Origin: Candidatus Saccharimonadales bacterium
GTDB lineage: Bacteria; Patescibacteriota; Saccharimonadia; Saccharimonadales; SZUA-47
DNA length: 64,000 nucleotides
Reading direction: 5' to 3'
Assembly (NCBI GenBank): GCA_041737385.1
Contig: JBGSRU010000002.1
Coordinates: forward strand, 333,437-397,436
Positions 11,186 to 47,358 of this stretch are shown in pieces (the first letter of the stretch is position 1; the number at the start of each line of letters is the position of its first letter). The translations under genes were made by a program, and so were the position numbers. Below the pieces are notes generated by a model. That model saw only the letters and a program-made list of their open reading frames with translations. It ran no database searches and had not been told where the DNA came from.

Positions 11186-12784
11186 TTATTTCTTCTTAAC
11201 AGATGGCTTCTTGGCAGATTTTTTAACAGTTTTTTTCGTGACTTTATTTTTAACTGGTTCGCGGACTCGAGCAGGTGATGTTACGAGTTTTTCCTCTTCT
11301 TTGAGTTGGTTGCCAAATTTTTTAATGAGGGCAGGTGCGATGAAGGTAGTGATGATGACAACAAGCACAATTGTGCTGAACAGCTCACTAGACAGTACGC
11401 CGAGAGCGCTACCTGTAGCTGCGAATATTAATCCTACTTCACCACGAGGGACCATTGAGACACCAACAAACATCTTTTCGGTTCTTGTACCTTGGGCTGC
11501 AAAACCAGCAACAAACTTAGAGGCTATAGCTATTACAGAAATAATACCTGCTGTTAGATACAGACCTGGATCTAGTAAAGAGCCGAAATCGATCTGTAAA
11601 CCGGTGAATACGAAGAACACAGGAATGAATATGAGGCCTATGCTGTTAATCAGATCTTCGATGTGTGAGTGACGGTGCTTCTTGATGATTGAAGCAACTG
11701 TTTCATCACCCTCAAGGTATTTGATGTCTTCAATAATTTCTGGATCTGAGAATGATTCAAAGTGAACCGCGTCTAACAAGAGTCCAGCAGCAAATGCACC
11801 AATGATTGGTTCAAGGCCAAACAGTTCAGCAAGGTAACCAAATACGAGTGCGAAACCAACAGCAAGTGTGAGTTTCATACCTATCCCAGTATGAATAGCA
11901 CTGAACAACTTTGAAATAGGTTTCGCAAGTAATCCACCCAAAACGATTGCTCCACCAAGGAAACCAAATGATTTAGCTGCTAGTTCTATGATGAGCGCTG
12001 GAGTTAGTTCGCCGCCAGCTGCAAGTGAAGATACGATTGCAAGCACGATAAGTCCGAGTACGTCATCGATTACGGCTGCGCCAAGTACTGTTTGAGCAGC
12101 ACGAGTCTTCGTAAGCTTTAGTGAACGGAAGACAGACGCAGTGATTCCAACACTGGTTGCAACAAGCGATGCACCCAAGAATAGTTGTGCATTAGAAGAA
12201 GCGTCACCGAAGAAAATAGGCGCGAGAACAAAAGATCCAAGTGAGAAGGGTATAACAACGCCAATCAAAGCAACCATAAGTGCTCGAACACCAACTTTTT
12301 GCATCTCTTTAGTATTTGATTCTAGTCCAATTGAAAACAGTAAGAGCAGTGCACCAAACTGTGCAAGGAAACTTATTATTTCATTTGCAGCAATCTCTCC
12401 GATAAAACCCCAGCCGAAATATCCAACAGCAGACAATGCAACACCAGCGAGTAGCTCACCAATGACGGCAGGCTGACCGTATTTTTCGACAAAGTTACCT
12501 AGCTTACCTGCAATCAAAACAAGCGCAAACATAGCGAATATGATGCCAAAATGATGCGCTCCGCCTTCAGAGTGCTCTTCGTCTTCAGTAGCAACTTCAT
12601 TATCAGTATAGTTTGCTTTTACTTCGTTTTCGCCAACATGCGAATCACCTTCATAAGAGCTGGATTCTTCAGCGACTGCGACTAACGAATAATCGTTAGC
12701 AGCGTTGACTGAATTAGTTTGTAAAACTACAAGAGGTACAGCCGCAAAGAGCAGTACTGCCAAACTGGCAATAAATCGTTTCAT
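11186..12784 (-). CDS. cation:proton antiporter (Na+/H+ exchanger family) with signal peptide, acidic/His N-terminal region and Lys-rich tail
   Basis: At least 10 TM helices with Na_H_exchanger-like blocks (IGELLAGVALS, GLESN, PRGEVGLI). The C-terminus reads KKTVKKSAKKPSVKKK. Confidence 0.8.
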   Translation of the reverse strand: MKRFIASLAVLLFAAVPLVVLQTNSVNAANDYSLVAVAEESSSYEGDSHVGENEVKANYTDNEVATEDEEHSEGGAHHFGIIFAMFALVLIAGKLGNFVEKYGQPAVIGELLAGVALSAVGYFGWGFIGEIAANEIISFLAQFGALLLLFSIGLESNTKEMQKVGVRALMVALIGVVIPFSLGSFVLAPIFFGDASSNAQLFLGASLVATSVGITASVFRSLKLTKTRAAQTVLGAAVIDDVLGLIVLAIVSSLAAGGELTPALIIELAAKSFGFLGGAIVLGGLLAKPISKLFSAIHTGIGMKLTLAVGFALVFGYLAELFGLEPIIGAFAAGLLLDAVHFESFSDPEIIEDIKYLEGDETVASIIKKHRHSHIEDLINSIGLIFIPVFFVFTGLQIDFGSLLDPGLYLTAGIISVIAIASKFVAGFAAQGTRTEKMFVGVSMVPRGEVGLIFAATGSALGVLSSELFSTIVLVVIITTFIAPALIKKFGNQLKEEEKLVTSPARVREPVKNKVTKKTVKKSAKKPSVKKK

Positions 12785-12821
12785 TGTTTTATTAGTCCTT
12801 ATAAGATTATTATATTGTTCA

Positions 12822-12840
12822 AAATGTATTATATATCACA
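12822..12840 (-). promoter_or_regulatory. shared 19-nt upstream motif (minus-strand reading TGTGATATATAATACATTT, contains TATAAT)
   Basis: Identical 19-mer also at 15150-15168. It lies upstream of the antiporter gene. Confidence 0.55.
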
Positions 12841-12889
12841 TAAATAGCGTGTCAATAGAAAATGAGGCGCTATTTTATAACGATTTGTT

Positions 12890-15082
12890 TTATCCAAAAA
12901 GTGAAGTCAACAAGCTTCGTCTAGAATAACTTTGTGTGCTACCTACCTCAGCACCAAAAGCTTCCTCTTCGCCGTGTGCAGGCTGGTCAGTCGCATTGAT
13001 TGGCTTGGGGAATTTTAAGAATTTTGGACCGAGCTTATCTGCTACGCCAAGTATTTGAGCCCACACAAAACCTTCTGCGAGTGGGCGTGCATGAATTGGT
13101 AAAATCTGTTTTTTAGCTTCCTCAATACCATACTCATCAAGCGGGAAAGACACTACGTTCGCCATGTTACCAGGAGGTAGTAGCATGCCACCCTGAATAC
13201 CTGCTATTAAGGCAATCGATGGGTTATTCTCAGTAAACTTGAATCCTTCACGAACACCAACGAGGTTGTCGGCAACACTGCTAAATCCTGCGATCCCTAC
13301 ATATTTACCAAAGTCGTTAATGAGGTCTTTAACTATTTTGTTTGGTATTTTATCTGTTAATTCGTCAAACTTTCCGACAAGTTCTTTGAACACAGGGCTT
13401 ACAAATATCATACTCATACTCTGGAAAGGGAAGACATCTAAAACATCAGTAAAGCTATGACCAAGTGCTCGTTGCATTCTAGTCACATCTGTAACACGCC
13501 TATAAACCGCTACCGGGTTCCATTTACTCGTTACATCTCCGCCGAATCCAAGCTCTGCTTCAATCTCATCACTCACTTCTTTAGCGCTTACAGCAAAAAT
13601 CCTTGCAGTCGTAGCATCTAAGTTGTGCGACTCCATCCAATTAGTCAATCCTTCAAAGTCATCTGCAGCAACAAAATTCTTTATTTCTCTTTGCATCTCT
13701 ATTCTGTCATAACTATGTTGATCTGAGCGATCGGGTAAATTAGCAAGAACACCTGATATAAACTGGTCATAACGATGAAAATCTTCAATTCTTGATCCTT
13801 CTTCTTCATGACCGTGTGATTCAATGTGATCCTTCAAAAGCAAGTCTTTAAAACCGTCCACTTTATCAGAAAAAGCACCCAAAACATCATGTCGCATACC
13901 ATTTTTATCTTGCTCTTTTCCAAGAATAGGAAGTACAAGATTTTTTACTGACCTTCCCATTACACCTTTAACAAATCCTAGGTTACGACCTAGTGCTTCA
14001 CGGGATAGTTTACCTGCATCTTTTTCTTCGCCCTCGATAGCACCTATTTTTATCAACTCTTTAGTAATCATTTTGTTTGTGTACTCTAAAGAACGTAGCG
14101 CAGGAACCATACCTACTGACAAAGACTGCCATAATAATCCTATGCCACCAAAACGTTCTAGGGTCGCAATAAACGGTGGATCACCAAAGAAAGGGAAGCC
14201 TGCTTTATCTGAAATATGGCTTTGTAGAAGTGCTTTGATGTGACCAATTGATTCTTGTGTTGCAGGATCTTCAGAGGCAGTACTCTCTCCAGCTATAGAA
14301 GATAACGTATCTTCAACCATTTGGTCCGCAAATGATTGTGCTTGTTTGACAATTGTTGAGGCTTCTTTTGTGGTCATTCCTGAAGCTCCTACAGTAGTCA
14401 CCATAGGGGCTAAGACTGATGCAAGCTCTGTCACAATTGCAACTCGGTCTTGAAGTACTAAGTCTTTTCGTGCTGTTATCTCTTTATATATTGTTTCAAC
14501 ATCCAACATCATTCCTTCAGCGACCACAACCGTTCCTTCGATAATTGCAGTAAATTTAAGTGTTGCAGCTAGTTCCTCATCAATATGATGCAAGGTCTCT
14601 TCATCACCTTCTTTTCTGGCATTATGACGTTTTAACCCAATTAAAACAGCCTGCGAATAATAGTGTCCCTGAGTAATTGTTCTTCCAGAAGATAATTCTT
14701 TAATACCGTGAGCGAACACGCCTGTTCCTATATAGTCTAATTTATCCGGACCGTGCTCTAGATGTTCGCCCTCTTCTTCATTTTCTAGACCTTCTAACAT
14801 CTCGTCTAGAAAATCGCTCATTTCTGAATCAAGGCTTTCAATTTCTCGAATTGCTTCTAACTCTTCAGGGGTCAATTGTACTTCATCGCGGCTTTGCCCA
14901 AGCGGGTCTTCAAGGAAGAAGTCTGCTACTACGTCAAGACCTCTACCGGCCTGATGTCCAGCGTCACCTGAATATACGATTGCAGCTCCTAGGCCAGCCG
15001 CAGCGATTCCACCTTTAATTATTGCATCTCTTCTTGACATTTCTGGATTCAAATGAGGATCCGTTTCTTGCGTGTGTGCCAT
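12890..15082 (-). CDS. large orphan protein with Tat-like N-terminal signal
   Basis: ORF 12890..15139. ATG 15082 is preceded by SD GGGAG. The N-terminus MAHTQETDPHLNPEMSRRDAIIKGGIAAAGLGAAIV resembles S-R-R-x-x-x-K plus an h-region. The remainder is acidic and unrecognised. Confidence 0.6.
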   Translation of the reverse strand: MAHTQETDPHLNPEMSRRDAIIKGGIAAAGLGAAIVYSGDAGHQAGRGLDVVADFFLEDPLGQSRDEVQLTPEELEAIREIESLDSEMSDFLDEMLEGLENEEEGEHLEHGPDKLDYIGTGVFAHGIKELSSGRTITQGHYYSQAVLIGLKRHNARKEGDEETLHHIDEELAATLKFTAIIEGTVVVAEGMMLDVETIYKEITARKDLVLQDRVAIVTELASVLAPMVTTVGASGMTTKEASTIVKQAQSFADQMVEDTLSSIAGESTASEDPATQESIGHIKALLQSHISDKAGFPFFGDPPFIATLERFGGIGLLWQSLSVGMVPALRSLEYTNKMITKELIKIGAIEGEEKDAGKLSREALGRNLGFVKGVMGRSVKNLVLPILGKEQDKNGMRHDVLGAFSDKVDGFKDLLLKDHIESHGHEEEGSRIEDFHRYDQFISGVLANLPDRSDQHSYDRIEMQREIKNFVAADDFEGLTNWMESHNLDATTARIFAVSAKEVSDEIEAELGFGGDVTSKWNPVAVYRRVTDVTRMQRALGHSFTDVLDVFPFQSMSMIFVSPVFKELVGKFDELTDKIPNKIVKDLINDFGKYVGIAGFSSVADNLVGVREGFKFTENNPSIALIAGIQGGMLLPPGNMANVVSFPLDEYGIEEAKKQILPIHARPLAEGFVWAQILGVADKLGPKFLKFPKPINATDQPAHGEEEAFGAEVGSTQSYSRRSLLTSLFG

Positions 15083-15149
15083 TTTACTCCCACGAAAAGC
15101 TAGCGCTTTAATCGTATTTTTTTGATTATTTGTCAACAACTCTTTATCG

Positions 15150-15168
15150 AAATGTATTATATATCACA
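15150..15168 (-). promoter_or_regulatory. second copy of the 19-nt upstream motif
   Basis: AAATGTATTATATATCACA is identical to 12822-12840. It lies upstream of the 730-aa orphan. Confidence 0.55.
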
Positions 15169-15346
15169 AAAATTTGAGGTCAAGGGTGTAAGCAACTTTT
15201 CGAGATATGCCTTGATGTAAAGTATGTCGACAAAGCCATAACCGGTATTGTATCCACGCAAATTTTTTTTTGCTAACTTTATATAAAACGATTGTATATG
15301 CTTGCGAAGATAAGAACATCTAAAAATCGTCCATTATGATTAATTG

Positions 15347-15355
15347 TGATATAAT
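15347..15355 (+). promoter_or_regulatory. extended -10 promoter TGATATAAT, about 150 nt upstream of alr
   Basis: Exact TGnTATAAT on the plus strand in the 368-nt spacer. Confidence 0.45.
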
Positions 15356-15507
15356 TCACATAAATAGTTAAGAATTCAAGTCTAACCTAATACAATGTAT
15401 AGATTTTCCGTAACCCTAAAATCACGCAAAGATACTATTTTGTGTTGCCCAGGCCCAGTACAGTTGCGCAAGTCAGCTGTATGCATCCCTAATAAAATCG
15501 TAACTAT

Positions 15508-16656
15508 ATGAGTAAGAAATCTATCGGGCTAGAAGCCCAAATACACAGTTTAGTTTGGGCAGAGGTTGACCTTCAAAAGTTGCGAAATAATTTTTTGCAA
15601 TTACGTAAGTTTGTAAATGATAAAACTAAGTTTTTAGCTGTTGTTAAGGCTAATGCGTATGGTCATGGAATTCAACGTATATCCAAAGAGTTAGAGAAGC
15701 TAGGCGTTGATTACCTTGGTGTTTCGAATCTCAATGAAGCTGTGACGATAAGAAGATGTGGAGTAATGACTCCAATTCTTGTGTTTGGATATGTATGCCC
15801 AGAGGATATTGGTATTGCAGTAGATAATCACATCACACTTACGGTATGTGAAGATACCATGCTTAGTGCTGTTGCTTCTTACGCAACCAAAACCGATAAA
15901 ACTGTGCCAGTCCACATACAGATTGATACTGGCCTTCGCATGTACGGCGTTGATTATAGGGAAGTTGGATCATTTATAAATAAAGTCCTGCACCATTCTA
16001 ATATCTATGTAGAAGGGGTTTATAGCCATTTTACTAACTCAGAGGACAAAGATACTATACTTTCTTTTGAGCAGCTAGATCTTTTCAATAATGCATTGAA
16101 GGAAATCATCAGTTATGGGGTTAACCCTCCCTATATTCATATTGCAAATGGAGCTGCAGTTATAAATATTCCTGAATCGCACTATACGATGGTAAGAACA
16201 GGAACGTTTTTATATGGCAACCAGACAAAAGGACAAAATCCTAAATTTAAGCCAGAGCAGATCATGACATTAAAAACAAAAGTTGTTCATAAATCACAAT
16301 TAAGTCCCAGTGACCAAGTGGGTTATGAGAAATCATTTATAACGTCAGGAATTAAAGAAATCGCATGCTTACCAATTGGTTACGGTGATGGATTTAGGCA
16401 AAAACCTCATTGGGAATATGTTTTAATCAATGGTCAGCAAGCCCCTGTTATAAATGGTGTCAGCATGGATAAAACAGCTGTTGATATATCAAAAATTAAA
16501 AATGTGGAAATTGGAAGCGAAGTGGTTTTGCTGGGAACACAAAAAGAGACAATAACAATAAATCAAGTTGCACAGATGCTGAATGCAGCTAACTATGAAA
16601 TTCTCTCCGGATTAACTAGCAGGGTTAAGAGAATTTATTTAAACGAAACATTATGA
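15508..16656 (+). CDS. alr: alanine racemase
   Basis: PLP-Lys motif AVVKANAYGHG, central HIANGAA, and C-terminal GVSMDKTAVDI block. The length of 382 aa fits. Confidence 0.9.
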   Translation: MSKKSIGLEAQIHSLVWAEVDLQKLRNNFLQLRKFVNDKTKFLAVVKANAYGHGIQRISKELEKLGVDYLGVSNLNEAVTIRRCGVMTPILVFGYVCPEDIGIAVDNHITLTVCEDTMLSAVASYATKTDKTVPVHIQIDTGLRMYGVDYREVGSFINKVLHHSNIYVEGVYSHFTNSEDKDTILSFEQLDLFNNALKEIISYGVNPPYIHIANGAAVINIPESHYTMVRTGTFLYGNQTKGQNPKFKPEQIMTLKTKVVHKSQLSPSDQVGYEKSFITSGIKEIACLPIGYGDGFRQKPHWEYVLINGQQAPVINGVSMDKTAVDISKIKNVEIGSEVVLLGTQKETITINQVAQMLNAANYEILSGLTSRVKRIYLNETL

Positions 16657-18215
16657 AACAATTAATAAATACTAAACCACAGATACATACCCCTCAGCTA
16701 GAAATTGAGTTGCTTTCTGAGTTACGCGAAAAAGCATTTGCGCGTCGCCCCCAGCTGGAAGAGATCATCAACGCCTCACGAGATATGACACTTTTTGATT
16801 TCTCAAAAATGTATAATGTTCCATACTCACAAAATATTAATGCAACCCTGAAGCTACAATTCATTGATACATTTGCCAAAGAAGTGGAACGATTACTTGG
16901 CATTGAAGTAGCAGCCAGCTGTGCTCGTCAACTAGCAACAACCTATAGAGTTACGACGACTGACCATCATGGACCAATAAGCGAACCCGGTATGGTAAAC
17001 AGCAATATTCATGAAGCACTACCATATTTAAATGGAGACGAAACTATAAAAAACATTATTGTGCTTGGTTGTGCGAATGTCTCTTTTGACAACGAATCGT
17101 TTCCGCGAGGATTGTTATTTCACGTTCCTAGTGCTATTGATGCAGAATGTAAACAACTTGTATTTTTCTCCCGTTCAGTACGAGCTAAGCCTGTTATATA
17201 TCACCCATCATACGATCATGAAAACCTAACTAATGCAAAGAAATTACTTGCTAACTGGCAGATAGAAAAATCCATTAGTGAAAACGAGAAGAATAAAGTT
17301 GAAAAAATTCTTGATGACATATATGCCGAACCTTCTGTGATGCAGTGTACCAATTTTTCAGAACAAGTAACTAAAACGAACTACAGCCTTTGGGCTATGC
17401 TTATGAAGCATTATGAAAATGCACCAAAGCTTGTATATATCGAGCAAGAAAACATTGTTAATTTGCTTTTATTAAACTACCATCTAGACCAAGATACAAT
17501 CATCCATAGATTGTTATTTACACCCAAATACCACGAACTTATAATTAAACACTTCAACGGCATCGATAAGTGCTTTTCACTTCAAGAAAATAAGGGAACT
17601 TATCTATTCTGGGCACTGCCAAATGGACAAAAATATCGTGTACAGCTCTGGAAAAAAGGAAACTTTCTCACAACTGATGATGGTAGCTACCAGGTTCCAT
17701 TGACTCCTGAAGGCATTAGAAATGCGATCAATAATAAAGAGCTAATTCCTAGCACACTTATGTCGTTCACTCTTTTGTCTTTTTATTACGGTGTGAAACT
17801 CACAGGTGGGACTAACCAAACTACATATCTTAATCAGATGAAAGAGGCATTTATAAATATGCAAAATGAGTATGGAGATACAGAGAGTGCAAAGTTTGCT
17901 CGCAAAGTACCCACAAAAGAGCTGTCTGTGGCTCTGCACAATCTAGCATTTCTAGAAAACATATGGGGCAACCATTTACCTGCAACTTGTATAGATATTA
18001 TCCTTTATGGTGACAAAAACACGATGTCTAGCTTAAAAGAAGAAGCGCAAAAATTAACACTTAACGAAGTTTTTGAATGGGCTTTACCCGATCTTTATAG
18101 CTGGTACTATAGTGCAGCCGAGAGAAGTCCGCTATTATCAAACATTTCTAAGGCACAGATTAGAGACTATCTTGGTATAGACGAAAAAATAATTCCCATT
18201 GCCATACCTAGTTAA
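16653..18215 (+). CDS. orphan 520-aa protein translationally coupled to alr
   Basis: ATGA start/stop overlap with alr. There are no P-loop, ATP-grasp or TM features that I can see. Confidence 0.6.
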   Translation: MKQLINTKPQIHTPQLEIELLSELREKAFARRPQLEEIINASRDMTLFDFSKMYNVPYSQNINATLKLQFIDTFAKEVERLLGIEVAASCARQLATTYRVTTTDHHGPISEPGMVNSNIHEALPYLNGDETIKNIIVLGCANVSFDNESFPRGLLFHVPSAIDAECKQLVFFSRSVRAKPVIYHPSYDHENLTNAKKLLANWQIEKSISENEKNKVEKILDDIYAEPSVMQCTNFSEQVTKTNYSLWAMLMKHYENAPKLVYIEQENIVNLLLLNYHLDQDTIIHRLLFTPKYHELIIKHFNGIDKCFSLQENKGTYLFWALPNGQKYRVQLWKKGNFLTTDDGSYQVPLTPEGIRNAINNKELIPSTLMSFTLLSFYYGVKLTGGTNQTTYLNQMKEAFINMQNEYGDTESAKFARKVPTKELSVALHNLAFLENIWGNHLPATCIDIILYGDKNTMSSLKEEAQKLTLNEVFEWALPDLYSWYYSAAERSPLLSNISKAQIRDYLGIDEKIIPIAIPS

Positions 18216-18228
18216 AAAACTGAAATGG

Positions 18229-18654
18229 CTATCTTCGGTTGCGGCGTTTTAGTTCGGCTATTTTGAGTCGAGACGATTGCCTGTCGACAAGCATCTGAGC
18301 TTTGTCGAGAGATACTTGGTCTCTTGCTTCAGATCGTAGTTGCTTTGCGCGTTCTAGTGCAGCTTCCGCTTCTTTGGCGCTGACTTCTGAATCTTTGTCG
18401 GCAATATCAACCAATACCCGTACAGTGTTGTCAGTTATTTCAATTACTCCGCTATCAATCGCATAATACTCTTGTAGATCATCCGGTGTGTTGTTGTTCT
18501 TTCGAACCGTGATAATACCCGTCACAGCAGTCGAAACGAGCGGAGCGTGTCCTGCAAACACCGCAATAATTCCTTGTGGGGTAGGGAGCTTGACTTCGTA
18601 GATAGATTCTCGAAGCTTTACGCCGGTTAGGGTAACAAGTTCAAAATGGATCAT
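18229..18654 (-). CDS. atpC: F1 ATP synthase epsilon subunit
   Basis: MIHFELVTLTGVK…AGHAPLVS beta-sandwich pattern plus a C-terminal helical hairpin. It is the last gene of the atp cluster. Confidence 0.85.
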   Translation of the reverse strand: MIHFELVTLTGVKLRESIYEVKLPTPQGIIAVFAGHAPLVSTAVTGIITVRKNNNTPDDLQEYYAIDSGVIEITDNTVRVLVDIADKDSEVSAKEAEAALERAKQLRSEARDQVSLDKAQMLVDRQSSRLKIAELKRRNRR

Positions 18655-18658
18655 AGTA

Positions 18659-19378
18659 TTAGATCGTCCATTCCGACGTGCCTGCTTCTGCTATGTCTGA
18701 AATATGGGTGGGGGGGTCTTGGCTAGCTTCATTTGCATGTAGTCGCAGAGCCGTACTTTCTTGTGCTTGGTTGTATGTAGTGTTCGATAGTGCACTAAAG
18801 TCTTCAATCGTATCTTTTGTACCAGCTTGGATGGGTATATCAGACCCTGAACCTATTCGTGTCTCACTACTTGAGCCTCGTGTCGGCACTGCATATCTTG
18901 CAGACGCAAAATCAATGATTGTTGAACCTAGCTCATCTCCAGCAACAACAGTCATTGCGTGAGCTTTTGTCCATTCTACTGCTCCAAAAGCAGACAGTAG
19001 GCCAAATCCACGCTTCGGTTTTTCTGATGGAAATTTCTCTGGACGGTGCAACTTTCTAGCAGCTTCTTCTGCAACAAGCTTAGTAAGCGCGACAGTGTCA
19101 GATGCTGCATTTCTTACCCTATCTGAACCAGTTGCGCCAGTTACTGGATCAGTAGCTAGTAAATCGAACGTCGCATGTGCTTTTTCAACACCAGATTGAA
19201 CCTTTTTTGCTCCGCCCCAAGCAGCTAGCAATCCTAATGAACCAACAGTTAGTGGCGCTATGAGCGCAACTTCTAGTGTCTTTTTTGAAGCTCTATCAAG
19301 TCTTGCTCCAATAGATTCTAAATGATCACCATCATGCCCGACATGATTCGCTCCAGAACTATGTGCATGCACACTCAT
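18659..19378 (-). CDS. orphan 239-aa protein inserted between atpD and atpC
   Basis: Starts 2 nt after the atpD stop and ends 4 nt before the atpC start. It has a His-rich N-terminus (MSVHAHSSGANHVGHDGDH) and one hydrophobic segment (ALIAPLTVGSLGLLAAWGGA). Confidence 0.55.
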   Translation of the reverse strand: MSVHAHSSGANHVGHDGDHLESIGARLDRASKKTLEVALIAPLTVGSLGLLAAWGGAKKVQSGVEKAHATFDLLATDPVTGATGSDRVRNAASDTVALTKLVAEEAARKLHRPEKFPSEKPKRGFGLLSAFGAVEWTKAHAMTVVAGDELGSTIIDFASARYAVPTRGSSSETRIGSGSDIPIQAGTKDTIEDFSALSNTTYNQAQESTALRLHANEASQDPPTHISDIAEAGTSEWTI

Positions 19379-19380
19379 TG

Positions 19381-20823
<1,443 letters not shown>

Positions 20824-20865: not shown

Positions 20866-21810
20866 TCATGACATTGCCTCCGCTCCACCGACGATTTCTG
20901 CGAGTTCTTGGGTGATGGCTGATTGGCGGGCGCTGTTAGCAGCTAGTGTCAGGTCATCTATCAGATCACCAGCGTTGTCAGAAGCAGTTTTCATGGCTAA
21001 CATACGTGAACTTTGCTCTGAGGCTTGGCTCTCTAAGTAAGCTTGCCATAACTGTACATCGACTAAACGATCAGCAATAGTATCAAGCACGACTTGTGGA
21101 CTTGGTTCAAACAATGCCAGCTCTAGATCTGCTGAGACTTTTGTGTCTGTAAATGCAGCAGGTAAGAGTCGTTGTTTGGTTACTTCTTGGACAACACTCG
21201 ACTTAAAATCAGTGAACAATATGTCTACAGCATCTGTTTGGGGGATTATTTCTGCAACTATATTTTTTGCATAAGGGTTCTTAATAGTGCTTTCGTCTTC
21301 ATTCTTAACGATTATTTCTTTACCAACGAACTGTTCTTTTACAGTGCTGAGGATTGCAATCAGATCATTGATAGTTGGTCGTTCTGGCATAGAGTCGTAA
21401 CTAGCAAGCACGTGTATATCTGAGATTTTTCCAACAAACTTCGCTGCTTGTTTACCAATAGTGATGATTTTGGTTTCAATATTGTTCTCAATATCAGCTT
21501 TAAGTTCTTTTGTTAACTGACGAAGAACGTTAGAGTTATATGCTCCAGCCAATCCTCGGTCTGAGGTAATGACTATGAGAATTCGACTTTTTACCTCGCG
21601 AGTAACGAAAAGTGGATGCTTCGAGACATCAGTAAGCTCACGCAAACGAGTCAATATCTGGCGGGCTGTATGTACATATGCGCGTGACGCTACCGTTGTT
21701 TCTTGAGCACGGCGCATTTTACTGGCAGCAACCAGCTCCATAGCCTTGGTGATCTGCTTGGTATTCTTGACGCTCTTGATGCGCGCTTTGATCTGCTGTG
21801 TACTAGCCAT
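20866..21810 (-). CDS. atpG: F1 ATP synthase gamma subunit
   Basis: N-terminal IKARIKSVKNTKQITKAMELVAASKMR and C-terminal ITQELAEIVGGAEA signatures. Confidence 0.9.
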   Translation of the reverse strand: MASTQQIKARIKSVKNTKQITKAMELVAASKMRRAQETTVASRAYVHTARQILTRLRELTDVSKHPLFVTREVKSRILIVITSDRGLAGAYNSNVLRQLTKELKADIENNIETKIITIGKQAAKFVGKISDIHVLASYDSMPERPTINDLIAILSTVKEQFVGKEIIVKNEDESTIKNPYAKNIVAEIIPQTDAVDILFTDFKSSVVQEVTKQRLLPAAFTDTKVSADLELALFEPSPQVVLDTIADRLVDVQLWQAYLESQASEQSSRMLAMKTASDNAGDLIDDLTLAANSARQSAITQELAEIVGGAEAMS

Positions 21811-22183
21811 TATTGACTCCTCTCAATGCGGCAAACGCAAGATGAGAAGTTTTATTACGAAGCCGGAAAACGTCTCCTACAAGTACTTCATCCTCGCCAC
21901 GATCACGTAGCTGACGAGCTGCCCATACATCAAAATCAACGAGTATTGGTTGCTCAGTATCATCCTCAGCAGGAGTTACTACTTTGAAATCGTACGTTGA
22001 TATTCCCGTATTTGGATCGATAGCAGTTTGCGTTCTTACGAAGTTCGGTGGTAGCTGATAAGGGATAAACGCAAAGGCATAGCCTTCATTGATAGCTGTT
22101 GGTGTTTCGGTAGCCTCTATGCGAATAGCCTCCGATACAAATCCTTCAGCAAACGTTTCTAAACTTTCATATGTTTGAGCCAT
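21803..22183 (-). CDS. orphan 126-aa protein inside the atp operon
   Basis: SD AAGGTGA. Its 3' end overlaps the atpG start by 8 nt. No motif recognised. Confidence 0.55.
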   Translation of the reverse strand: MAQTYESLETFAEGFVSEAIRIEATETPTAINEGYAFAFIPYQLPPNFVRTQTAIDPNTGISTYDFKVVTPAEDDTEQPILVDFDVWAARQLRDRGEDEVLVGDVFRLRNKTSHLAFAALRGVNNG

Positions 22184-22224: not shown

Positions 22225-22482
22225 TCACGCGAATCCACCCTGAGGAGACCATTCATTAATAAACTGCGGTGGTACAGGAAGTAACTGCTCTCTAGTATCT
22301 ACTAAATGATCTCCTCTATGCATAGCTGACTGAAGTCCGCATAGCGCCGCTCTTCTCGCAACAGCCAAGTCTTCACCGGTCAGAGTGCTTAGTCCAGTAA
22401 CGACATCAGCTTCAACACCCAAGCCTTTAGCGACTTCGGCGATTAGTTGTTCTGGTGTTGGGTAGGGCTGTGCATCTGACAT
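22225..22482 (-). CDS. orphan 85-aa protein inside the atp operon
   Basis: Starts 1 nt after the atpA stop, with a GAGGAAA SD inside the atpA 3' end. No motif recognised. Confidence 0.5.
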   Translation of the reverse strand: MSDAQPYPTPEQLIAEVAKGLGVEADVVTGLSTLTGEDLAVARRAALCGLQSAMHRGDHLVDTREQLLPVPPQFINEWSPQGGFA

Positions 22483-22483
22483 A

Positions 22484-24022
22484 TTATTTTTCCTCTGCGT
22501 ATTCTTTCGCTACTTTTTCAGCTTGGTCAGTGATGATTTTGGTCATTGTGTCTTCAACTTTGCCGCCTTCGTTTAACTTCGCCATATCCTTTTTCTTCTC
22601 GCTACTTAGCTGAGAGAGCAAGGCGTGTTGAGCTTTCTTGATCTGTGCAACTGGCACGCTGTCAAATGAACCACTTGTTGCAGCGATCAGACTTGCGACT
22701 TGCTCCCATACTGATAGCGGTGAGTACTGTGGTTGTTTTAGTAGTTCAGTTAGTCGTTGACCACGTTCGATACGTGATTTTGTATCTGCGTCTAGATCTG
22801 AGCTGAACTGTGCGAATGCTGCAAGTTCACGGAACTGAGCTAGGTTGATACGTAGTGAGCCAGCTGCGCCTTTCAAGGCCTTAGTCTGGGCAGCACCACC
22901 AACACGTGATACCGATAGACCAACTGAGATAGCCGGACGGATACCTTGGTTGAACAAGCTCGTTTCCATGAAAATCTGACCGTCAGTGATCGAGATCACG
23001 TTGGTCGGGACGAATGCTGATATATCTCCAGCTTGCGTTTCTACAATAGGTAGGGCAGTTAGTGAACCGCCACCTTCAGCGTCAGATAGTTTGGCCGCAC
23101 GCTCGAGTAGTCGTGAGTGTAGGTAGAACACGTCACCTGGGTAAGCTTCGCGTCCCGGTGGGCGACGGAGTAGAAGTGACATCTGGCGGTAGGCCACAGC
23201 GTGCTTTGAAAGGTCGTCATAGGTAATTAATGCGTGCTGACCATTGTCTCGGTAGAATTCACCCATAGCTGCACCCGCGTACGGCGCGAGGTATTGCATT
23301 GAAGCCGGATCAGAAGCTGAAGTCGCCACTACAATAGTCTGGTCCATCACACCTTCGCGCTCAAGTCGCTCAACCATTCGTGCAACCTTGGACATCTTTT
23401 GACCAATCGCTACATAAATATTGATCACGCCTGTGTTTTGCTTGGCTTGGTTAATCATAGTGTCTACCGCAACGGCTGTTTTACCAGTTTGGCGGTCACC
23501 GATGATCAGCTCACGCTGACCACGACCGATTGGGACCATAGCGTCAATTGCCATCAGTCCAGTCATCATAGGTTCGTGGACAGATTTACGAGCAAGCACA
23601 CCAGGAGCAGGTCGTTCTACGAGTCCAGTTAGCTTTGTTTTGATAGGACCCTTGTCGTCAAGTGGTCGTCCAAGTGGATCAACAACGCGACCTTGCAGCT
23701 CAGGGCCGATAGGGACCTCTAGGACTGAACCAGATAGTTTGACCTTGGCGCCGGCTTTCACCTTGGTATCTGAATCTAGCAATACAGCTCCGATTTCGTC
23801 TTCCATGAGGTTGAGGGCAAATGCACTGACTGAACCGCCGTCGGCTGATTCGATTTCTAACATTTCTGAATAACCTGCAGCAGATAGTCCGTAAATCCAT
23901 GCCACACCGTCACCGATACGGGTGACGATTCCTGATTTTTCAACGTTTCCGCTGGTTTTTAGTGCTTGAATGGCGCTTCTTACTTCTGCGGCCAGTTCTG
24001 CTGTTGATACTTGTGTACTCAT
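22484..24022 (-). CDS. atpA: F1 ATP synthase alpha subunit
   Basis: Walker A GDRQTGKT and alpha-type blocks ([23 protein letters not shown]). Confidence 0.95.
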
Positions 24023-24023
24023 A

Positions 24024-24413
24024 TTATTTGCTCTCCGATATTGCTGTTTTAAATCTATTTAATCTTCCTCGTACTGTTAGGTCTATTTCTGACTCACCTG
24101 AACGGGCTTTGACTCCGCCAATGACACTTAGGTCGATGACTTCATTGAACTGTGGGTTCTCAACCTCAAGAAGCGCTGCGAGCTGCTTCTTCACTTCACC
24201 AGATACCTCATGTGCAGACGTAATAGTAACCTGTGCAGACCCACGGCGAGTTAACTCTTCATCAATAGCTCGCATAACCGCTGACATATCGCGACTACGA
24301 CGTTCTTCTAGTAGGTATGCGGCAATGCTTGACGATAAATGCTTGATGTTTGAGCCAGCTTCAAGCTGATCAACCGCATACTTAGCCAAGTCGTTAGTCG
24401 TTACTTTACCCAC
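24024..24413 (-). CDS. atpH: F1 ATP synthase delta (OSCP) subunit, short form (129 aa)
   Basis: The C-terminal [30 protein letters not shown] matches the delta C-terminal motif. Its position between atpF and atpA fits. Confidence 0.75.
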
Positions 24414-24976
24414 TATTTCAAAGCCTCCTTGAGATAGTTTTCTACTAATTTTCTGTCACCTGACTCGTCGAGTTTTTGACCGATGATTGCTTCGGTCGCT
24501 TCAGTTACCAAACTTGCCATTTCGGATTTCAGACCTTTGCGGGCTTCATCAATGTCGCGTTCAATTTTGCCTTCAGCCGCACGTAGAATATCGTCAGCCT
24601 TTTGATTGGCTTTTTCTTCAGCAGCTTGGATCATTTTACCCGTTTCTTGACTAGCTTCAGCAATGATCAAGTCAGCTTCTTTTCTGGCAGCTTTCAAGGC
24701 TTTCTCTACAGTCAGTTCTAGCTCTGCAGACTTCTTGTCCATTTCTGAAGTTAGATGCAGGCCACGGCTGATGTCTTCCTCGCGCTTCTGCAGGTTAGCA
24801 ACGATACCACTAAGTGCGTACTTCTTAATCACAAAGAACAAGACGAGGAAGGTAATTGCAGATGCACCGATTGCAGGCAAGCTTAAGCCTAGCGCACCGA
24901 TGCCTTCAGAAGTTTCTTCCGCTTTTTCACCGGCTGCCGCAGCTCCAGCTGCAAATGTATTTAGTAAGTTCATCAT
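24413..24976 (-). CDS. atpF: Fo ATP synthase subunit b
   Basis: A single N-terminal TM followed by a long charged helix. Its position fits, and it has a 1-nt overlap with atpH. Confidence 0.8.
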   Translation of the reverse strand: MMNLLNTFAAGAAAAGEKAEETSEGIGALGLSLPAIGASAITFLVLFFVIKKYALSGIVANLQKREEDISRGLHLTSEMDKKSAELELTVEKALKAARKEADLIIAEASQETGKMIQAAEEKANQKADDILRAAEGKIERDIDEARKGLKSEMASLVTEATEAIIGQKLDESGDRKLVENYLKEALK

Positions 24977-25122: not shown

Positions 25123-25374
25123 CTACAAGAGGAATGCGCCAAGTAGGAACGCAAGCAGTGCGGTAACCTCGATCATAGCTGCGATAATCACAACCTGACT
25201 TGAAGCTTTTCCAGCTTCTGGATTTCGTCCAATAGCTTTCATGTAGTTTGAACCTACAAGACCAAGACCAATAGCTGCTAGTGCTAGTGAGAGACCAACC
25301 ATTCCAGCTTTTGACCATGCTTCTGCAACTTGAACATCAAATTCAGTTGCTTGTGCTAGAGTTTGTAAAAACAT
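25123..25374 (-). CDS. atpE: Fo ATP synthase subunit c
   Basis: Two-helix hairpin with a polar loop RNPE and the ion-binding Glu in AAMIEVTAL. Confidence 0.85.
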   Translation of the reverse strand: MFLQTLAQATEFDVQVAEAWSKAGMVGLSLALAAIGLGLVGSNYMKAIGRNPEAGKASSQVVIIAAMIEVTALLAFLLGAFLL

Positions 25375-25421: not shown

Positions 25422-26297
25422 TCATGATGAAGGTACTAGCTCTTCGACCTTTTGAGCGTTAACTTCTTCATGTTCATCGTGATGGTCGGCGTGTGCAATC
25501 GCCAAGGACAAGTAGGTAGCAGTGAGTACCGTAAACACATATGCCTGAATACCGGCGACAAGCAACTCAAACATCAGAATTGGAATGACCGCAATTGGTG
25601 TCCGTCCGCCAGTCAGCACTAAACTCGTAAACACGGCTATCAAAATCTCACCAACAGCAGTGTTTAAAAACAAACGCAACGACAAGGATAAGATACGAGT
25701 AAACTCACCGAAAACCTCTAAAATACCTATAAAAAAATTGATTGGGTTGAGCGGTTTGCTACTGAAATAATGCGTTAAGTGGCCCTTGATGCCCTGAGCA
25801 CGAATTGACAAGATCTGTACATAAACAATCGCAATGATCGACATAACCAATGTACCGTTCAAATCTGCAGTGAAGGGACGGAAGAGTGGGATTTGGCCTT
25901 CTTTTGTACTGACCTCTAACGCTGGACCAACCAGTGGGAAGAGTCCCATGATATTCGTGAATAGTATGAATATAAAGAACGTTGCCATAATAGGCGCATA
26001 TTTGTAGGCTTTCTGTCGTGAACCAAAGGCGCCTTCAAGCATTCCTACGACGAACTGCACGATAGATTCAAGCACTGCGACCGAATAGTTTTTCTTGGCT
26101 GGTTTTACGGTGGATTTTTTAGCAATAGTTGTCAGGACAACTCCCATGAACAACGCGACGATTACACCATATACCATTGAATTCGTAACTGGTATGCCAG
26201 CAACGTTCCATAGCTCTTCAGCTTTAAGCGACACGTGAATTTCAGACTCACCAGCTGCAAAAACAGAGGTAATAGGGTATAGCAAAGAATTAAGCAT
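25422..26297 (-). CDS. atpB: Fo ATP synthase subunit a
   Basis: Essential-Arg motif LSLSLRLFLN. Polytopic, and the first gene of the cluster. Confidence 0.85.
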   Translation of the reverse strand: MLNSLLYPITSVFAAGESEIHVSLKAEELWNVAGIPVTNSMVYGVIVALFMGVVLTTIAKKSTVKPAKKNYSVAVLESIVQFVVGMLEGAFGSRQKAYKYAPIMATFFIFILFTNIMGLFPLVGPALEVSTKEGQIPLFRPFTADLNGTLVMSIIAIVYVQILSIRAQGIKGHLTHYFSSKPLNPINFFIGILEVFGEFTRILSLSLRLFLNTAVGEILIAVFTSLVLTGGRTPIAVIPILMFELLVAGIQAYVFTVLTATYLSLAIAHADHHDEHEEVNAQKVEELVPSS

Positions 26298-26482: not shown

Positions 26483-28414
26483 ATGCCTGAAATTTCACTA
26501 CCACCAATTACAGACACTATTGATCCGCACATTCGGATGGGTTTTTCAATTGGAAACAACCCTGTGCATGAATCAATGTTACACAGAAATAGTAATCCAC
26601 TAGAAATTCGCCACGATCACAAGCCTTCGATTTGGGACAGTCGTACTTGGGGCGCGACCCAACCCGATTATATTACCTTCGAACCAAACGATTTCTTGCA
26701 TCGATTACAGAGCGGTCATACACCAACTCGCTCAGATAGATTAAGATATCAAACTACCCGAGGATTTCGTGCTGGTGTTTTTAGAGATGTAGCAGACGAC
26801 ACAGACTCTAGAGAGCGACACAACGTTTCTCTCCATAGGATAAGTCAAGATCATACGAGCATTCCAAGAAGAAGAGTCCGTAGAGGCTTTGAAGCCGGAG
26901 TTGCCGTAAATGGACGTACAGTAGCCGCCACGCTTGCAGCAAGTGCACTTGTGTCTAGCGTCGGGGTACCAGATTTATTAGAGCCTTTTGTCATTAGAAT
27001 TGATACAGAAGACAAAATTATCCCGCTTGGATTAAGACAAGTAGAGCGTGATATTCCATTTCAAGAGCAGGAGTTTGTGACGACACGGCAGCGCAGTGAA
27101 CCTACGTTTAGCACAGGGCCTACTTTTGGAAGCGTCAGTACAACGGAAGAGTTTTCCAAGGAATTTACTATTCCAATGATCTGGTCTGAAACATTTGGAC
27201 CAAATGCAAAAATAGGCCTAGCTAACGCCGCTCCTCTCGATGCTGTCTACGATCTTGTAGACCAAGAAGGTATAGATATAGATAGTATCGTTATCAGAGG
27301 CTACTCAGACGCTACCGATGACACTCGTGATGGAGTAGCAGGTGTCCAAACACAAACGGCTGGGAACCAAGCAATTGCCGATGCGCGAGGAGAATTCATA
27401 GCCCGTGAAATAGTCGGGAACACTACTGTCGACAGCACTGTTGTATCGCAAGCCTTTGACCATATAGCTGAAGATAGCTTTACGGATGCAGAGCTAGAGA
27501 CTTTGCAAGTACTTTCAGAAAAATACGGCCGATTACCGGACGAGTTAATTGAACAATTCCACCGAGGTGCTATATCTGAAGCAGAAATTATAGCTTGGGG
27601 AACCGAAGAAATTGATGCCGAACAACGCGTAGAAGTCACTGTCGCCGGTACAACTACATCAACAGCTACAGGCGTAACGGGCGAGCAAGAGTTTTGCGAT
27701 ATACGAGAAACAGTGACCGAAGTTCCCATTAACGAAACTGAAATGGTGACCGAGCAAAACGAAATCGGTTTGCCAGATGTTTCACTCGCAATATTACCGT
27801 TGTTCTTGTACGCGGCTAGGCGCATGCGTGTTCACAAGCGACGTGTAGAGCCTTTAAGCGAAAATGCAGAAGCAATACGACGCGCTATAGAAAGCGAACT
27901 CTCTCCTCAGCAACAGATTAGACTACCAAGGTTGCAAACTGGTCGAGGCTCAGGTGGCAGCGGAGCAGGGCGCGTTCCTACAAGTAGGGGGAGCACAGGA
28001 GCAACTCCGACAACACCTCGAACGCCATCTCCTACTACATCGCCGCGACCAAATACTGGAAGCGCTCCAAATACTCCAGCTAGGACTCCTCAACCAAGAC
28101 CAGAAGCAACCCCACCAGCATCTACCGTCGTAAGACCACCCCGCCCAACGATCAGAGAGACACTACGCCAGTGGCGATTTCCTGCGCTTGTCGGAGGCGG
28201 AGTTGTAGCAGCTGTTATTCTGCTTTCAATGTGTGATAGTGATCCTGATTTGCCAAATTACGATTTCAGCGTTCCACGAATAGAATCAGACGGTAATCCA
28301 CCGAGCGAGCCAGAGCTTGAATCAAAAGAATGTAAAATTACTACCGTCAGTACAGATCGAAACGGCGAAGTATCCATTTCCTCAGCAGACACAACCATAA
28401 TCGTAGAAAAATAA
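26483..28414 (+). CDS. large orphan membrane protein with P/T-rich linker
   Basis: 643-aa ORF. Weak OmpA-like block (IRGYSDATDD…GNQAIADARGEFIARE). Internal LPDVS, hydrophobic stretch and RRMRVHKRR. PT-rich tract, then a second TM. Confidence 0.55.
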   Translation: MPEISLPPITDTIDPHIRMGFSIGNNPVHESMLHRNSNPLEIRHDHKPSIWDSRTWGATQPDYITFEPNDFLHRLQSGHTPTRSDRLRYQTTRGFRAGVFRDVADDTDSRERHNVSLHRISQDHTSIPRRRVRRGFEAGVAVNGRTVAATLAASALVSSVGVPDLLEPFVIRIDTEDKIIPLGLRQVERDIPFQEQEFVTTRQRSEPTFSTGPTFGSVSTTEEFSKEFTIPMIWSETFGPNAKIGLANAAPLDAVYDLVDQEGIDIDSIVIRGYSDATDDTRDGVAGVQTQTAGNQAIADARGEFIAREIVGNTTVDSTVVSQAFDHIAEDSFTDAELETLQVLSEKYGRLPDELIEQFHRGAISEAEIIAWGTEEIDAEQRVEVTVAGTTTSTATGVTGEQEFCDIRETVTEVPINETEMVTEQNEIGLPDVSLAILPLFLYAARRMRVHKRRVEPLSENAEAIRRAIESELSPQQQIRLPRLQTGRGSGGSGAGRVPTSRGSTGATPTTPRTPSPTTSPRPNTGSAPNTPARTPQPRPEATPPASTVVRPPRPTIRETLRQWRFPALVGGGVVAAVILLSMCDSDPDLPNYDFSVPRIESDGNPPSEPELESKECKITTVSTDRNGEVSISSADTTIIVEK

Positions 28415-28485: not shown

Positions 28486-29124
28486 TTACTCCCAGAATCT
28501 AACAGCTGTTTCGAGTCGTTCTGATAGGGTTAGTTCTTTGCTGCCGGTGCAGGCTGAAGGATCGGCACGCTGATTGTATTCGCCCGCGTCTTGCGAGATT
28601 TCTGCATATTGTTCGTCTAGTTTTTCTCTCGTTGGACTACCAACGCTTATCAATAATGTGTCTTCTGATCGAATCGTCCGATTCGCAGTTGTTTCGACTT
28701 CGTCGCCGTTTAAGATAAATCTAATTTGAGTATCTTCGTCTTCAACGTACACTACACCGTCATAACGGAACACTGTATCTCCATCTGTCATACCGACGTT
28801 AGCAAAGAAATGTCCCCACGTTGCTGCTTCGTCGTGAACATGGACGATATGGTTGACTTGGTCATGCATGTGCGCGCGGATTTTAGGGTTATTTAGGTCG
28901 TCGCCACCACATGATTGCACTTCCTCGTAGTAAAATGGGCTATCAAACGGTAACCGTTGTTCTTCGATAAAAACAGCAAAATTAGCGTGATAATGCGTAG
29001 ATTCACGTGTATACAAGACGAACCTCAACGCGAGCAGCCAAAAAGCTCCGATGATGAAGGCAATAATCACTAATTTGAGCTCTTTTTTGTGTACTTTTAA
29101 TTTTTCCATAGATTCAGTATACAA
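28486..29124 (-). CDS. membrane-anchored His-motif protein, hypothetical
   Basis: N-terminal TM, then HYHANFAVF… and HMHDQVNHIVHVHDE His clusters. Confidence 0.5.
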   Translation of the reverse strand: MYTESMEKLKVHKKELKLVIIAFIIGAFWLLALRFVLYTRESTHYHANFAVFIEEQRLPFDSPFYYEEVQSCGGDDLNNPKIRAHMHDQVNHIVHVHDEAATWGHFFANVGMTDGDTVFRYDGVVYVEDEDTQIRFILNGDEVETTANRTIRSEDTLLISVGSPTREKLDEQYAEISQDAGEYNQRADPSACTGSKELTLSERLETAVRFWE

Positions 29125-46254: not shown

Positions 46255-47358
46255 GTGGGAACACAACATCAAGATGTTATAGAGATAAATGGTAAAAAAT
46301 ACGACGCTGTCTCAGGCAGATTAATCGACAAAAATCAAACAACCAATCAAATCACTACTATGCAGCCTACAGTGAAGCGAACTAACGGAGTTGCGGTCGA
46401 TGGATTTGTTAAAAGCACACATGCAATTCGTAAGGTGCAACATCAAAAAAAACCATTGCAAAAATCTCAAACGTTAATGCGAACTGCAGTCAAAAAACCT
46501 ATAGCAACTACTAAAACACCTCGACCAACTACGGTTGCAGGCATCTCAAAACCGCAGCTTGGAAGCTCAGCGCATCGTCAAAAGCTAGCCGCAGAAACCA
46601 TCAAAAGTCCACAAATATCTAAGTTCGGAAGCGCAGAACACCGAACCTCGATTGTTAAAAAAGTTCAAGACTTGCCTGTAAAGCAAGTTGTTCAGCATGC
46701 AACCCACCATGAAACTGCAACACTGCAAGCTCATCATGCAGTGCAAGCGCAACCAAGTGCATCACACTTGGCTCCTTCGAGAAGCAAAGCAACGTCAGCA
46801 CTCATCGAGAAAGCTCTCACAAATGCAACAGCACATGAACAACCCCTACATTCTGTTGAGCACGGTAAAAAGCGAAGGAAAATCGCTCACAAACTCGGTA
46901 TTAGTGCCCGCGCCATGGCAGTAAGTTCGAGCGTACTTGCGGGTGTCTTACTTGGTGGGTTTTTTGCACTTCAAAACGTGCCAAACCTCTCCATGAGAGT
47001 TGCAGCAGCGCGCGCTGGCTTCAACGCAAGTATGCCAGGCTACAATCCGTCAGGATTTAGCTTCAAAGGACCAATTAATTACAGCCCAGGACAAGTAACC
47101 GTTTCTTTCAGCTCAAACACTGATGATCGCCAATACAACGTCACACAAAGAGCAAGCAATTGGAATAGTGACGCACTCCTGTCTAATTTTGTTGCCGTAG
47201 ACAGCAATCAGTATCAAACGTACCTTGATCGAGGTCGAACATTATATATTTATGATGGTTCCAATGCAACATGGGTAGATAACGGCATCTGGTATCAGAT
47301 AGAAGGCAAGTCGGCAATGACTACTGACCAACTTGTTCGTATCGCTGCTAGCATCTAA
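46255..47358 (+). CDS. membrane-anchored hypothetical protein
   Basis: GTG start. Basic/His-rich N-terminal half, a central TM, and a beta-rich C-terminal domain. Confidence 0.45.
   Translation: MGTQHQDVIEINGKKYDAVSGRLIDKNQTTNQITTMQPTVKRTNGVAVDGFVKSTHAIRKVQHQKKPLQKSQTLMRTAVKKPIATTKTPRPTTVAGISKPQLGSSAHRQKLAAETIKSPQISKFGSAEHRTSIVKKVQDLPVKQVVQHATHHETATLQAHHAVQAQPSASHLAPSRSKATSALIEKALTNATAHEQPLHSVEHGKKRRKIAHKLGISARAMAVSSSVLAGVLLGGFFALQNVPNLSMRVAAARAGFNASMPGYNPSGFSFKGPINYSPGQVTVSFSSNTDDRQYNVTQRASNWNSDALLSNFVAVDSNQYQTYLDRGRTLYIYDGSNATWVDNGIWYQIEGKSAMTTDQLVRIAASI

Follow-up and report, generated by a model that had tools for sequence, protein, structure and literature searches.

Bacterial F1Fo ATP synthase is usually taken to be a fixed set of eight subunits, and the genes of its beta and epsilon subunits, atpD and atpC, are among the most conserved neighbours in prokaryotic genomes. 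In the window analysed here, a stretch of 64,000 nucleotides (nt) from a Candidatus Saccharimonadales bacterium (GenBank assembly GCA_041737385.1, contig JBGSRU010000002.1, positions 333,437 to 397,436), these two genes are separated by an open reading frame (ORF) of 239 amino acids (aa), here called ins239, which lies on the same strand as its neighbours. What surprises at this locus is a slot found across a whole clade of Saccharibacteria and not one insert, ins239 being the largest instance of the coupled, hypervariable cistrons that occupy their F1 junctions. The features of the junction are the following:

19381..20796, minus strand: atpD, F1 beta subunit (Pfam).
19379..19383, minus strand: upstream coupling junction, made of the atpD stop codon TAA (19381-19383) and a 2-nt spacer, CA, after which the ATG of ins239 follows.
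18659..19378, minus strand: ins239, the ORF of the atpD-atpC junction, 239 aa with an ATG start (ORF listing; stop codon 18659-18661).
18652..18661, minus strand: downstream coupling junction, made of the ins239 stop codon TAA, a 4-nt spacer, TACT, and the atpC ATG.
18229..18654, minus strand: atpC, F1 epsilon subunit, with its C-terminal helical region present (ORF listing, Pfam).

A sequence-only reading of this DNA had placed the 239-aa ORF 2 nt after the atpD stop codon and 4 nt before the atpC start, and both distances were confirmed on the sequence; its premise, that beta is normally followed directly by epsilon, holds for bacteria in general, the beta-epsilon (IB-IE) pair being one of three gene-order blocks generally conserved in prokaryotic atp loci (PMC4154653). 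The atpD-atpC gap of the window measures 726 nt, 99% of which is filled by ins239, in a frame that differs from those of atpD and atpC, with stop codons separating all three. Another gene caller uses a GTG at codon 3 as the start, which gives a protein of 237 aa (P0001). Since ins239 is flush with both neighbours, ribosomes ending beta can re-initiate on ins239 and those ending ins239 on epsilon, and this coupling probably matters, because the start sites of both ins239 and atpC carry only weak Shine-Dalgarno-like motifs. Promoter-like and terminator-like sites around ins239 do not exceed the shuffled expectation and none of them brackets the ORF; the region has no flanking or internal repeats, the junction RNA has no Rfam match at E <= 0.1, and base composition and GC content are those of the rest of the operon.

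The probability that 239 codons stay open by chance at this base composition is 6e-7, and the remaining five frames across ins239 contain 5-20 stops each. The GC contents of its three codon positions (GC1/2/3 = 0.59/0.52/0.26) are of coding type. With a codon log-likelihood model trained on the recognisable genes of the window, the called frame scores +0.24 per codon, as compared with +0.26 for atpC, whereas all five other frames score lower, four of them below zero; the coding signal is present both in the N-terminal 75 codons and in the other 164. The identical gene occurs in the same context in an independent Logan assembly of run SRR28170464. The ORF does lie in the F1 part of the operon, as had been noted, and is a true coding sequence with close coupling on either side; on this sequence evidence we conclude that ins239 is most probably a real cistron of the atp mRNA, expressed through translational coupling.

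Related loci were collected by a scan with gamma, one genome per species, which gave 80 loci (about 72 from Saccharibacteria, the rest from Bacillota and one Anaerolineales), and by a metagenome scan with epsilon, which added 7; a junction was called occupied when its gap was at least 120 nt. An insert at this place is no peculiarity of this operon, the atpD-atpC junction being occupied in 42 of 67 Saccharibacteria loci. The atpG-atpD junction is occupied in 45/67 and the atpA-atpG junction in 33/71. Of the 42 occupied atpD-atpC junctions, 37 are at least 97% filled by same-strand ORFs, single or in chains. In the commonest geometry, the atpD stop is overlapped by 1 nt (22 cases) and the atpC start by 4 nt, in an ATGA-type overlap (20 cases). 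The Fo and stator genes are mostly tightly packed, with gaps above 150 nt in 2/52 delta-alpha, 1/53 a-c and 5/49 b-delta junctions; three of the nearest relatives of the window (L003, L046 and L065) have their c-b, b-delta and delta-alpha junctions, which almost all other loci keep tight, expanded too, to 213-807 nt. Occupancy of the beta-epsilon junction is associated with that of each other junction (odds ratio about 4.7, p about 0.015, computed with no phylogenetic correction), and for alpha-gamma against gamma-beta no significant association is seen (odds ratio about 2.0, p = 0.29). Co-occurrence, which had been proposed as something to test, is thus a tendency and not an obligatory linkage, the window itself having no insert at its gamma-beta junction. 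In a rough neighbour-joining tree of gamma and beta, tight beta-epsilon junctions are found mostly in early-branching lineages, and occupied ones in a large derived clade with scattered losses.

The proteins that fill these gaps are extremely diverse: 110 of 141 are singletons (phmmer, E < 1e-3), and each of the few small families is limited to one junction, a pattern that speaks for vertical inheritance and fast divergence. As a class the 141 ORFs are of coding type (GC1 0.58-0.61, GC2 0.40-0.43, GC3 0.35-0.37, with GC1 the highest in 91-96% of them) and their products are acidic, with a net charge of about -6 to -7 per 100 residues. For the beta-epsilon slot of the pair L010/L017, nonsynonymous divergence (dN) is 0.52 as compared with 0.068 for atpC, about 7.6-fold faster, and the proportion of nonsynonymous differences (pN = 0.375) is below that of synonymous ones (pS = 0.632), with the synonymous sites of the alignable slot pairs being saturated. 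A hydrophobic segment, defined as a 19-residue Kyte-Doolittle window of at least 1.6, is found in 9 of 47 beta-epsilon slot proteins but in 1 of the 94 proteins from the other two junctions (Fisher p = 2e-4). The slot also houses foreign genes: four-helix proteins of the PF05635 (23S_rRNA_IVP) family occupy it in L004, L032 and L064 (E = 2.9e-35 for L004), and L023 carries a block of several ORFs; their spacers are about 50 nt long and only 78-85% of the gap is filled. ins239 has no PF05635 match. The PF05635 proteins at the atp junctions of four Saccharibacteria (L004:3963-4337, L032:3617-4009, L064:12139-12507 and L055:1315-1524) show a weak bAvd-like match, and the block in L023, a Patescibacteria metagenome-assembled genome, spans 3.8 kb between atpD and atpC (12308-16095) with a 231-aa ORF directly after atpD.

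The description of ins239 as an orphan was upheld by exhaustive protein searches, which return only the protein itself. Its best Pfam match is an unrelated FlgE domain at E = 0.069; NCBIfam gives nothing at E <= 1, PADLOC and PHROGs give no match, PDB sequences none below E = 1, and tblastn against phage and plasmid collections none. A word-indexed search of 5.8 billion proteins recovers ins239 alone, as it likewise recovers no relative for the slot protein of L082, and an exhaustive phmmer search of 1.84 billion cluster representatives gives ins239 and one 1796-aa repeat protein (P0002), which was judged spurious, as its score adds up 9 short repeat matches to residues 47-89. The 90% cluster of ins239 has 2 entries, which are one gene with two start calls, on a 531-kb NCBI contig and on the identical Logan contig. 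Neither a paralog nor a donor of the C-terminal tail was found in the window or in the related loci, and a jackhmmer search with residues 1-75 of ins239 and nine slot proteins against all ORFs of 88 loci enlarged no family. ins239 is thus a strict orphan whose sequence is confined to one genome; its counterparts elsewhere are intact, coupled ORFs and not the decayed copies that had been named together with such confinement as what would refute the sequence-only reading. By the operational definition, ins239 is a species-specific orphan, probably of native origin. Like the orphans so described, whose origin is rapid divergence or de novo emergence, it has no homolog outside its species, has a host-like composition and lies between conserved genes (PMC11293555); unlike them, it stands in a positionally conserved, coupled slot of an essential and highly conserved operon, where a different orphan is found in dozens of species.

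Three parts can be told apart in the protein:

19322..19378, minus strand: His-rich polar head, residues 1-19 (MSVHAHSSGANHVGHDGDH).
19208..19279, minus strand: hydrophobic segment, residues 34-57 (TLEVALIAPLTVGSLGLLAAWGGA), a candidate membrane anchor, with RASKK just before it.
18662..19207, minus strand: lineage-specific C-terminal extension, residues 58-239.

The N-terminal cluster, 5 His within the first 19 residues, is as had been described. His makes up 1.9% of the long ORFs of the window, and only 3 of its 103 ORFs of at least 80 aa reach such a density, so the cluster is real and unusual, though not unique; the other ORFs that reach it are at 28486-29124 and 46255-47358. Another His-rich sequence of the operon is the His/acid-rich tail at the C-terminus of subunit a (window ~25422-25500, minus strand; ...AHADHHDEHEEVNAQ...). 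The single transmembrane (TM) helix that had been proposed stands as one hydrophobic segment and is weakened as to its strength: the 19-residue Kyte-Doolittle score passes 1.6 only in the windows at residues 34-37 and is highest, at 1.87, over residues 35-53, but the segment is Ala/Gly-rich, includes Glu and Pro, and has a Hessa-scale sum of +3.7 kcal/mol as compared with -0.0 to +1.7 in the nearest relatives. Residues 34-57 are therefore a borderline candidate for a single TM helix, plausible but not certain. The charges flanking the segment are almost balanced (+2 vs +1). Residues 58-239 are rich in Ala, Ser, Thr and Gly, and the last 79 carry a net charge of -6.

The seven tree-nearest members, namely L002, L065, L046, L003, L001, L082 and the window itself, all have an occupied beta-epsilon junction, of 256-776 nt. 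The contents of the slot differ widely between very close relatives: L087, whose beta is 98.5% identical to that of the window over 269 aa, has a slot protein of 62 aa, L081 one of 68 aa, and L082, with 94.7% identity in alpha and 95.9% in beta, one of 91 aa. Divergence between L082 and the window is uneven along the operon, with gamma 74.8%, delta 75.8%, b 79% and epsilon 79.4% identical. The L082-type slot ORF is identical in seven contigs from different samples, which are essentially clonal, so that this identity is uninformative on selection. At the DNA level, homology to the closest relatives, about 82% in atpD, extends as far as the atpD stop and is then lost until about 6 nt ahead of the atpC ATG, and for this reason gradual divergence and replacement cannot be told apart. 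ins239 is the longest single ORF of the slot, and nothing in the slot proteins of the closest relatives corresponds to its residues 58-239.

What is common to this clade is a layout, that is a polar head, often with basic residues, one hydrophobic helix starting at residue 24-46, and a polar tail. Head and helix are found in ins239 (helix 34-57), L087, L082, L081, L002 and L065, and in L001 the helix lies further in, at about residue 74. Such a helix is present in 7 of 10 nearest-clade loci vs 2 of 32 other loci (p = 1e-4). In shuffle tests, residues 1-80 of ins239 score z = 3.8 against L087, with 1 of 300 shuffles reaching the score, a value inflated by hydrophobic clustering; over composition-preserving shuffles z is 2.3-3.8 for L087, L045, L081 and L002, with the same bias. 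The relation of ins239 to the slot proteins of its nearest clade is thus positional and architectural, and possibly one of homology. In L003 the slot holds a chain of three ORFs (84+101+75 aa), and because its total length is similar to that of ins239, a fusion of chained cistrons is one possible origin for the long protein.

The reading that we put forward, tentatively and with somewhat less than even confidence, is that ins239 is a genuine, translated, species-specific gene in a slot occupied in most members of a large clade of Saccharibacteria, and that by analogy with small subunits of other membrane complexes it encodes a membrane-anchored accessory protein coproduced with F1. Ribosomes finishing beta would re-initiate on ins239 and then on epsilon by translational coupling, and the product, made together with F1 and anchored in the membrane, may be an assembly, stabilising or regulatory factor of F1Fo. 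As for KdpF, CydX and AtpI, selection would keep the general architecture and not the exact sequence, and the His-rich head and the C-terminal tail of about 180 aa would be lineage-specific additions. The slot ORFs as a class support this reading, being of coding type and, where they can be aligned, evolving about 7 times faster than epsilon with pN nevertheless below pS.

Several observations weigh against it. ins239 has no detectable homolog, and neither phmmer nor jackhmmer detects homology between it and the slot proteins of its nearest clade or among these. Relatives with a beta identical at 96-98.5% hold just 62-91 aa in the slot, with no alignable DNA, so that the tail of about 180 aa must be dispensable at the clade level. 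Beta and epsilon are directly adjacent in many Saccharibacteria, some of them within the insert-rich clade, which means that the enzyme cannot depend on any slot protein. The slot proteins of other subclades are acidic and have no hydrophobic helix; the segment of ins239 is the weakest of its group on the Hessa scale and ambiguous in topology, and the AlphaFold2 (AF2) single-sequence model is uninformative (pLDDT 42, pTM 0.31).

Known systems offer partial likenesses. Like KdpF in KdpFABC, CydX in cytochrome bd, and AcrZ, ins239 lies inside the operon of its would-be partner complex, has one hydrophobic segment and shows low sequence constraint; CydX is a single-helix subunit that tolerates extensive substitution (PMC6005532; also PMC4325964, review PMC12648545), and small single-helix proteins are easily missed by homology searches (PMC4325964, PMC12648545). 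Unlike the KdpF/CydX type, which is shorter than 60 aa, ins239 has 239 aa, a long polar tail, a His-rich head and a borderline helix, and its binding to a complex is conjectural. The shorter slot proteins (62-91 aa; L087, L081, L082) are closer to this class, only those of L087 (62 aa) and L081 (68 aa) nearing its limit of about 60 aa. The atpI/uncI, atpZ, atpQ and atpR genes are likewise non-catalytic members of atp operons, thought to aid assembly or ion handling (PMC2881411), but they are found upstream of atpB or, in N-ATPase operons, between atpC and atpB, and they form conserved Pfam families with 2-4 membrane helices, whereas ins239 stands between atpD and atpC, belongs to no family and has one borderline segment. 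No AtpI/UncI, AtpZ or AtpR/AtpQ profile of Pfam or NCBIfam matches it. ATP hydrolysis by F1 is inhibited by mitochondrial IF1, the alphaproteobacterial zeta subunit and cyanobacterial AtpTheta. The likeness to ins239 would be that of small, lineage-restricted, partly disordered or helical F1 regulators, but they are soluble (AtpTheta being very small), their genes lie elsewhere than between atpD and atpC, and each is conserved in its lineage. ins239 has no IF1 or zeta match in Pfam or, at E < 1, among PDB sequences, and an inhibitory role for it would be pure speculation.

A serious contender, doubtful on balance, is that ins239 is a translated spacer or proto-gene. In this lineage the junction would have grown by insertion and slippage, and the open frame would have been kept solely because epsilon needs coupled ribosomes; selection would then ask only that the product be open, soluble and harmless, the His-rich head and the hydrophobic patch being incidental. 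The extreme divergence and the range in length, from 62 to 239 aa, at a beta identity of 96-98.5%, the high share of singletons among the slot ORFs, the orphan state of both ins239 and the L082 slot protein among billions of proteins and the repeated loss of slots over the tree all fit such an origin, as do the weak Shine-Dalgarno-like motifs, which make coupling likely to matter, and the hypervariable in-frame insertion in gamma of the same clade (described below), which suggests a general tolerance of, or tendency to, expansions; a native origin of species-specific orphans is, moreover, considered plausible in bacteria (PMC11293555). However, with GC1 and GC2 at 0.59 and 0.52 against a GC3 of 0.26, the first two codon positions of ins239 are far from mutational equilibrium, for which stop avoidance alone is insufficient. 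pN is below pS in the alignable slot pairs despite saturated synonymous divergence (dS), the hydrophobic helix is tied to a single junction and a single clade, and useless DNA would be expected to be deleted from reduced genomes of about 1 Mb.

Saccharibacteria live on the surface of host bacteria, and ins239 may instead be a surface or host-interaction protein of the signal-anchor type, with its N-terminus inside and its C-terminus outside, which uses a strongly expressed operon and has no link to ATP synthase; this is unlikely. The Ala/Ser/Thr-rich, acidic tail of 180 aa would face outward, and an arms race, either with the host bacterium or with phages, would drive the fast evolution of the protein. 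The RASKK before the hydrophobic segment and the acidic tail give a weak fit to the positive-inside rule, the evolutionary rate is typical of contact proteins, and a pilus (pam) operon is reported to adjoin the ATP synthase genes in genomes of the Candidate Phyla Radiation (CPR) (bioRxiv 10.64898/2026.03.03.709456). The nearly balanced flanking charges, however, leave the topology undecided, slot proteins without a hydrophobic segment are found at all three junctions and in most subclades, and the restriction of such genes to F1 junctions is left unexplained.

It is very improbable that ins239 is a selfish or mobile insertion of the phage, plasmid or IVS type with its own expression signals, and this idea, raised as a counter-explanation in the sequence-only reading, is largely refuted. 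The slot does accept foreign genes, as the PF05635 proteins and the 3.8-kb block show, but around such true insertions spacers of about 50 nt remain and only 78-85% of the gap is filled, whereas ins239 fills 99% and is coupled at both ends. No flanking repeat, no shift in GC and no match to PHROGs, PADLOC, phages or plasmids was found, promoter-like and terminator-like sites are at or below chance, and codon usage is that of the host. That ins239 is not a gene at all but a random open frame, an error of assembly or a continuation of beta or epsilon, as its lack of homologs and presence in a single genome might suggest, is scarcely credible given the probability of 6e-7 for such an open frame, the frame-specific codon signal, the identical sequence in the independent Logan assembly, a frame that differs from those of both neighbours with stop codons between, and a gap-filling pattern that recurs in dozens of independent assemblies.

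The other members of the operon are as follows:

20866-21810, minus strand: atpG (gamma).
21803..22183, minus strand: ins126, the second gap-filling ORF of the atpA-atpG junction, with an 8-nt overlap with the atpG start.
22225..22482, minus strand: ins85, the first gap-filling ORF of this junction.
22484-24022, minus strand: atpA.
24024-24413, minus strand: atpH.
24413-24976, minus strand: atpF.
25123-25374, minus strand: atpE.
25422-26297, minus strand: atpB.

The operon does carry three extra genes, ins239, ins85 and ins126 being present as had been described. ins126 (126 aa) and ins85 (85 aa) fill 94% of the atpA-atpG gap with a coding-type composition, and each is alone in its 90% protein cluster. 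Neither has a match among 88 related loci, Pfam, NCBIfam, PADLOC or PHROGs, and by tblastn no related locus resembles any of the three extra ORFs; ins85 has one marginal match (E = 0.055), to the beta-epsilon slot protein of L017. The gamma gene (20866-21810, minus strand) has an in-frame insertion of about 27 aa, at about residues 164-190, as compared with the usual Saccharibacteria gamma of 287 aa, and an AT-rich patch (21200-21600) lies at this insertion. At the same site the gamma of L082 carries another insertion, of about 38 aa, that cannot be aligned with it, and these differing insertions indicate that in this clade hypervariable sequence accumulates within as well as between F1 genes.

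Downstream of atpC, two large ORFs of 749 and 520 aa without Pfam matches (12890-15139, minus strand, and 16653-18215, plus strand) and an alanine racemase gene separate atpC from a Na+/H+ exchanger gene. In an L082-type genome (L090) the exchanger follows directly after atpC, which suggests that the intervening block of the window is a rearrangement or an insertion in its lineage. Upstream of atpB and divergent from it, an ORF of 643 aa (26483-28414, plus strand) has a Pro/Thr/Ser-rich low-complexity region and hydrophobic segments.

A full-text literature search, which did not cover all journals, found no account of inserts in the atp operons of Saccharibacteria or other CPR bacteria. A wider proposition, possible but on the unlikely side, is that in the F1Fo operons of Saccharibacteria the alpha-gamma, gamma-beta and beta-epsilon junctions house an undescribed set of coupled cistrons of hypervariable sequence, which would encode lineage-specific subunits or regulators, or that these junctions are a hot-spot for new proteins; ins239 would then be the largest beta-epsilon example, membrane-anchored and His-rich.

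In a large group of ultra-small epibionts, coupled ORFs of coding type regularly interrupt three F1 junctions, the beta-epsilon one and its two neighbours. If the products bind the enzyme, there would be bacterial ATP synthases with lineage-specific supernumerary subunits, which would bear on the use of the enzyme by these fermentative, host-dependent cells. If they do not bind it, the junctions would be a well-replicated natural system, with dozens of independent lineages and known flanks and expression context, for the birth and persistence of orphan genes inside an essential operon of a reduced genome. Mitochondrial ATP synthases have fast-evolving accessory parts, and in either case, if the proposition is true, the Saccharibacteria would offer a bacterial rotary ATPase of which the same can be said.

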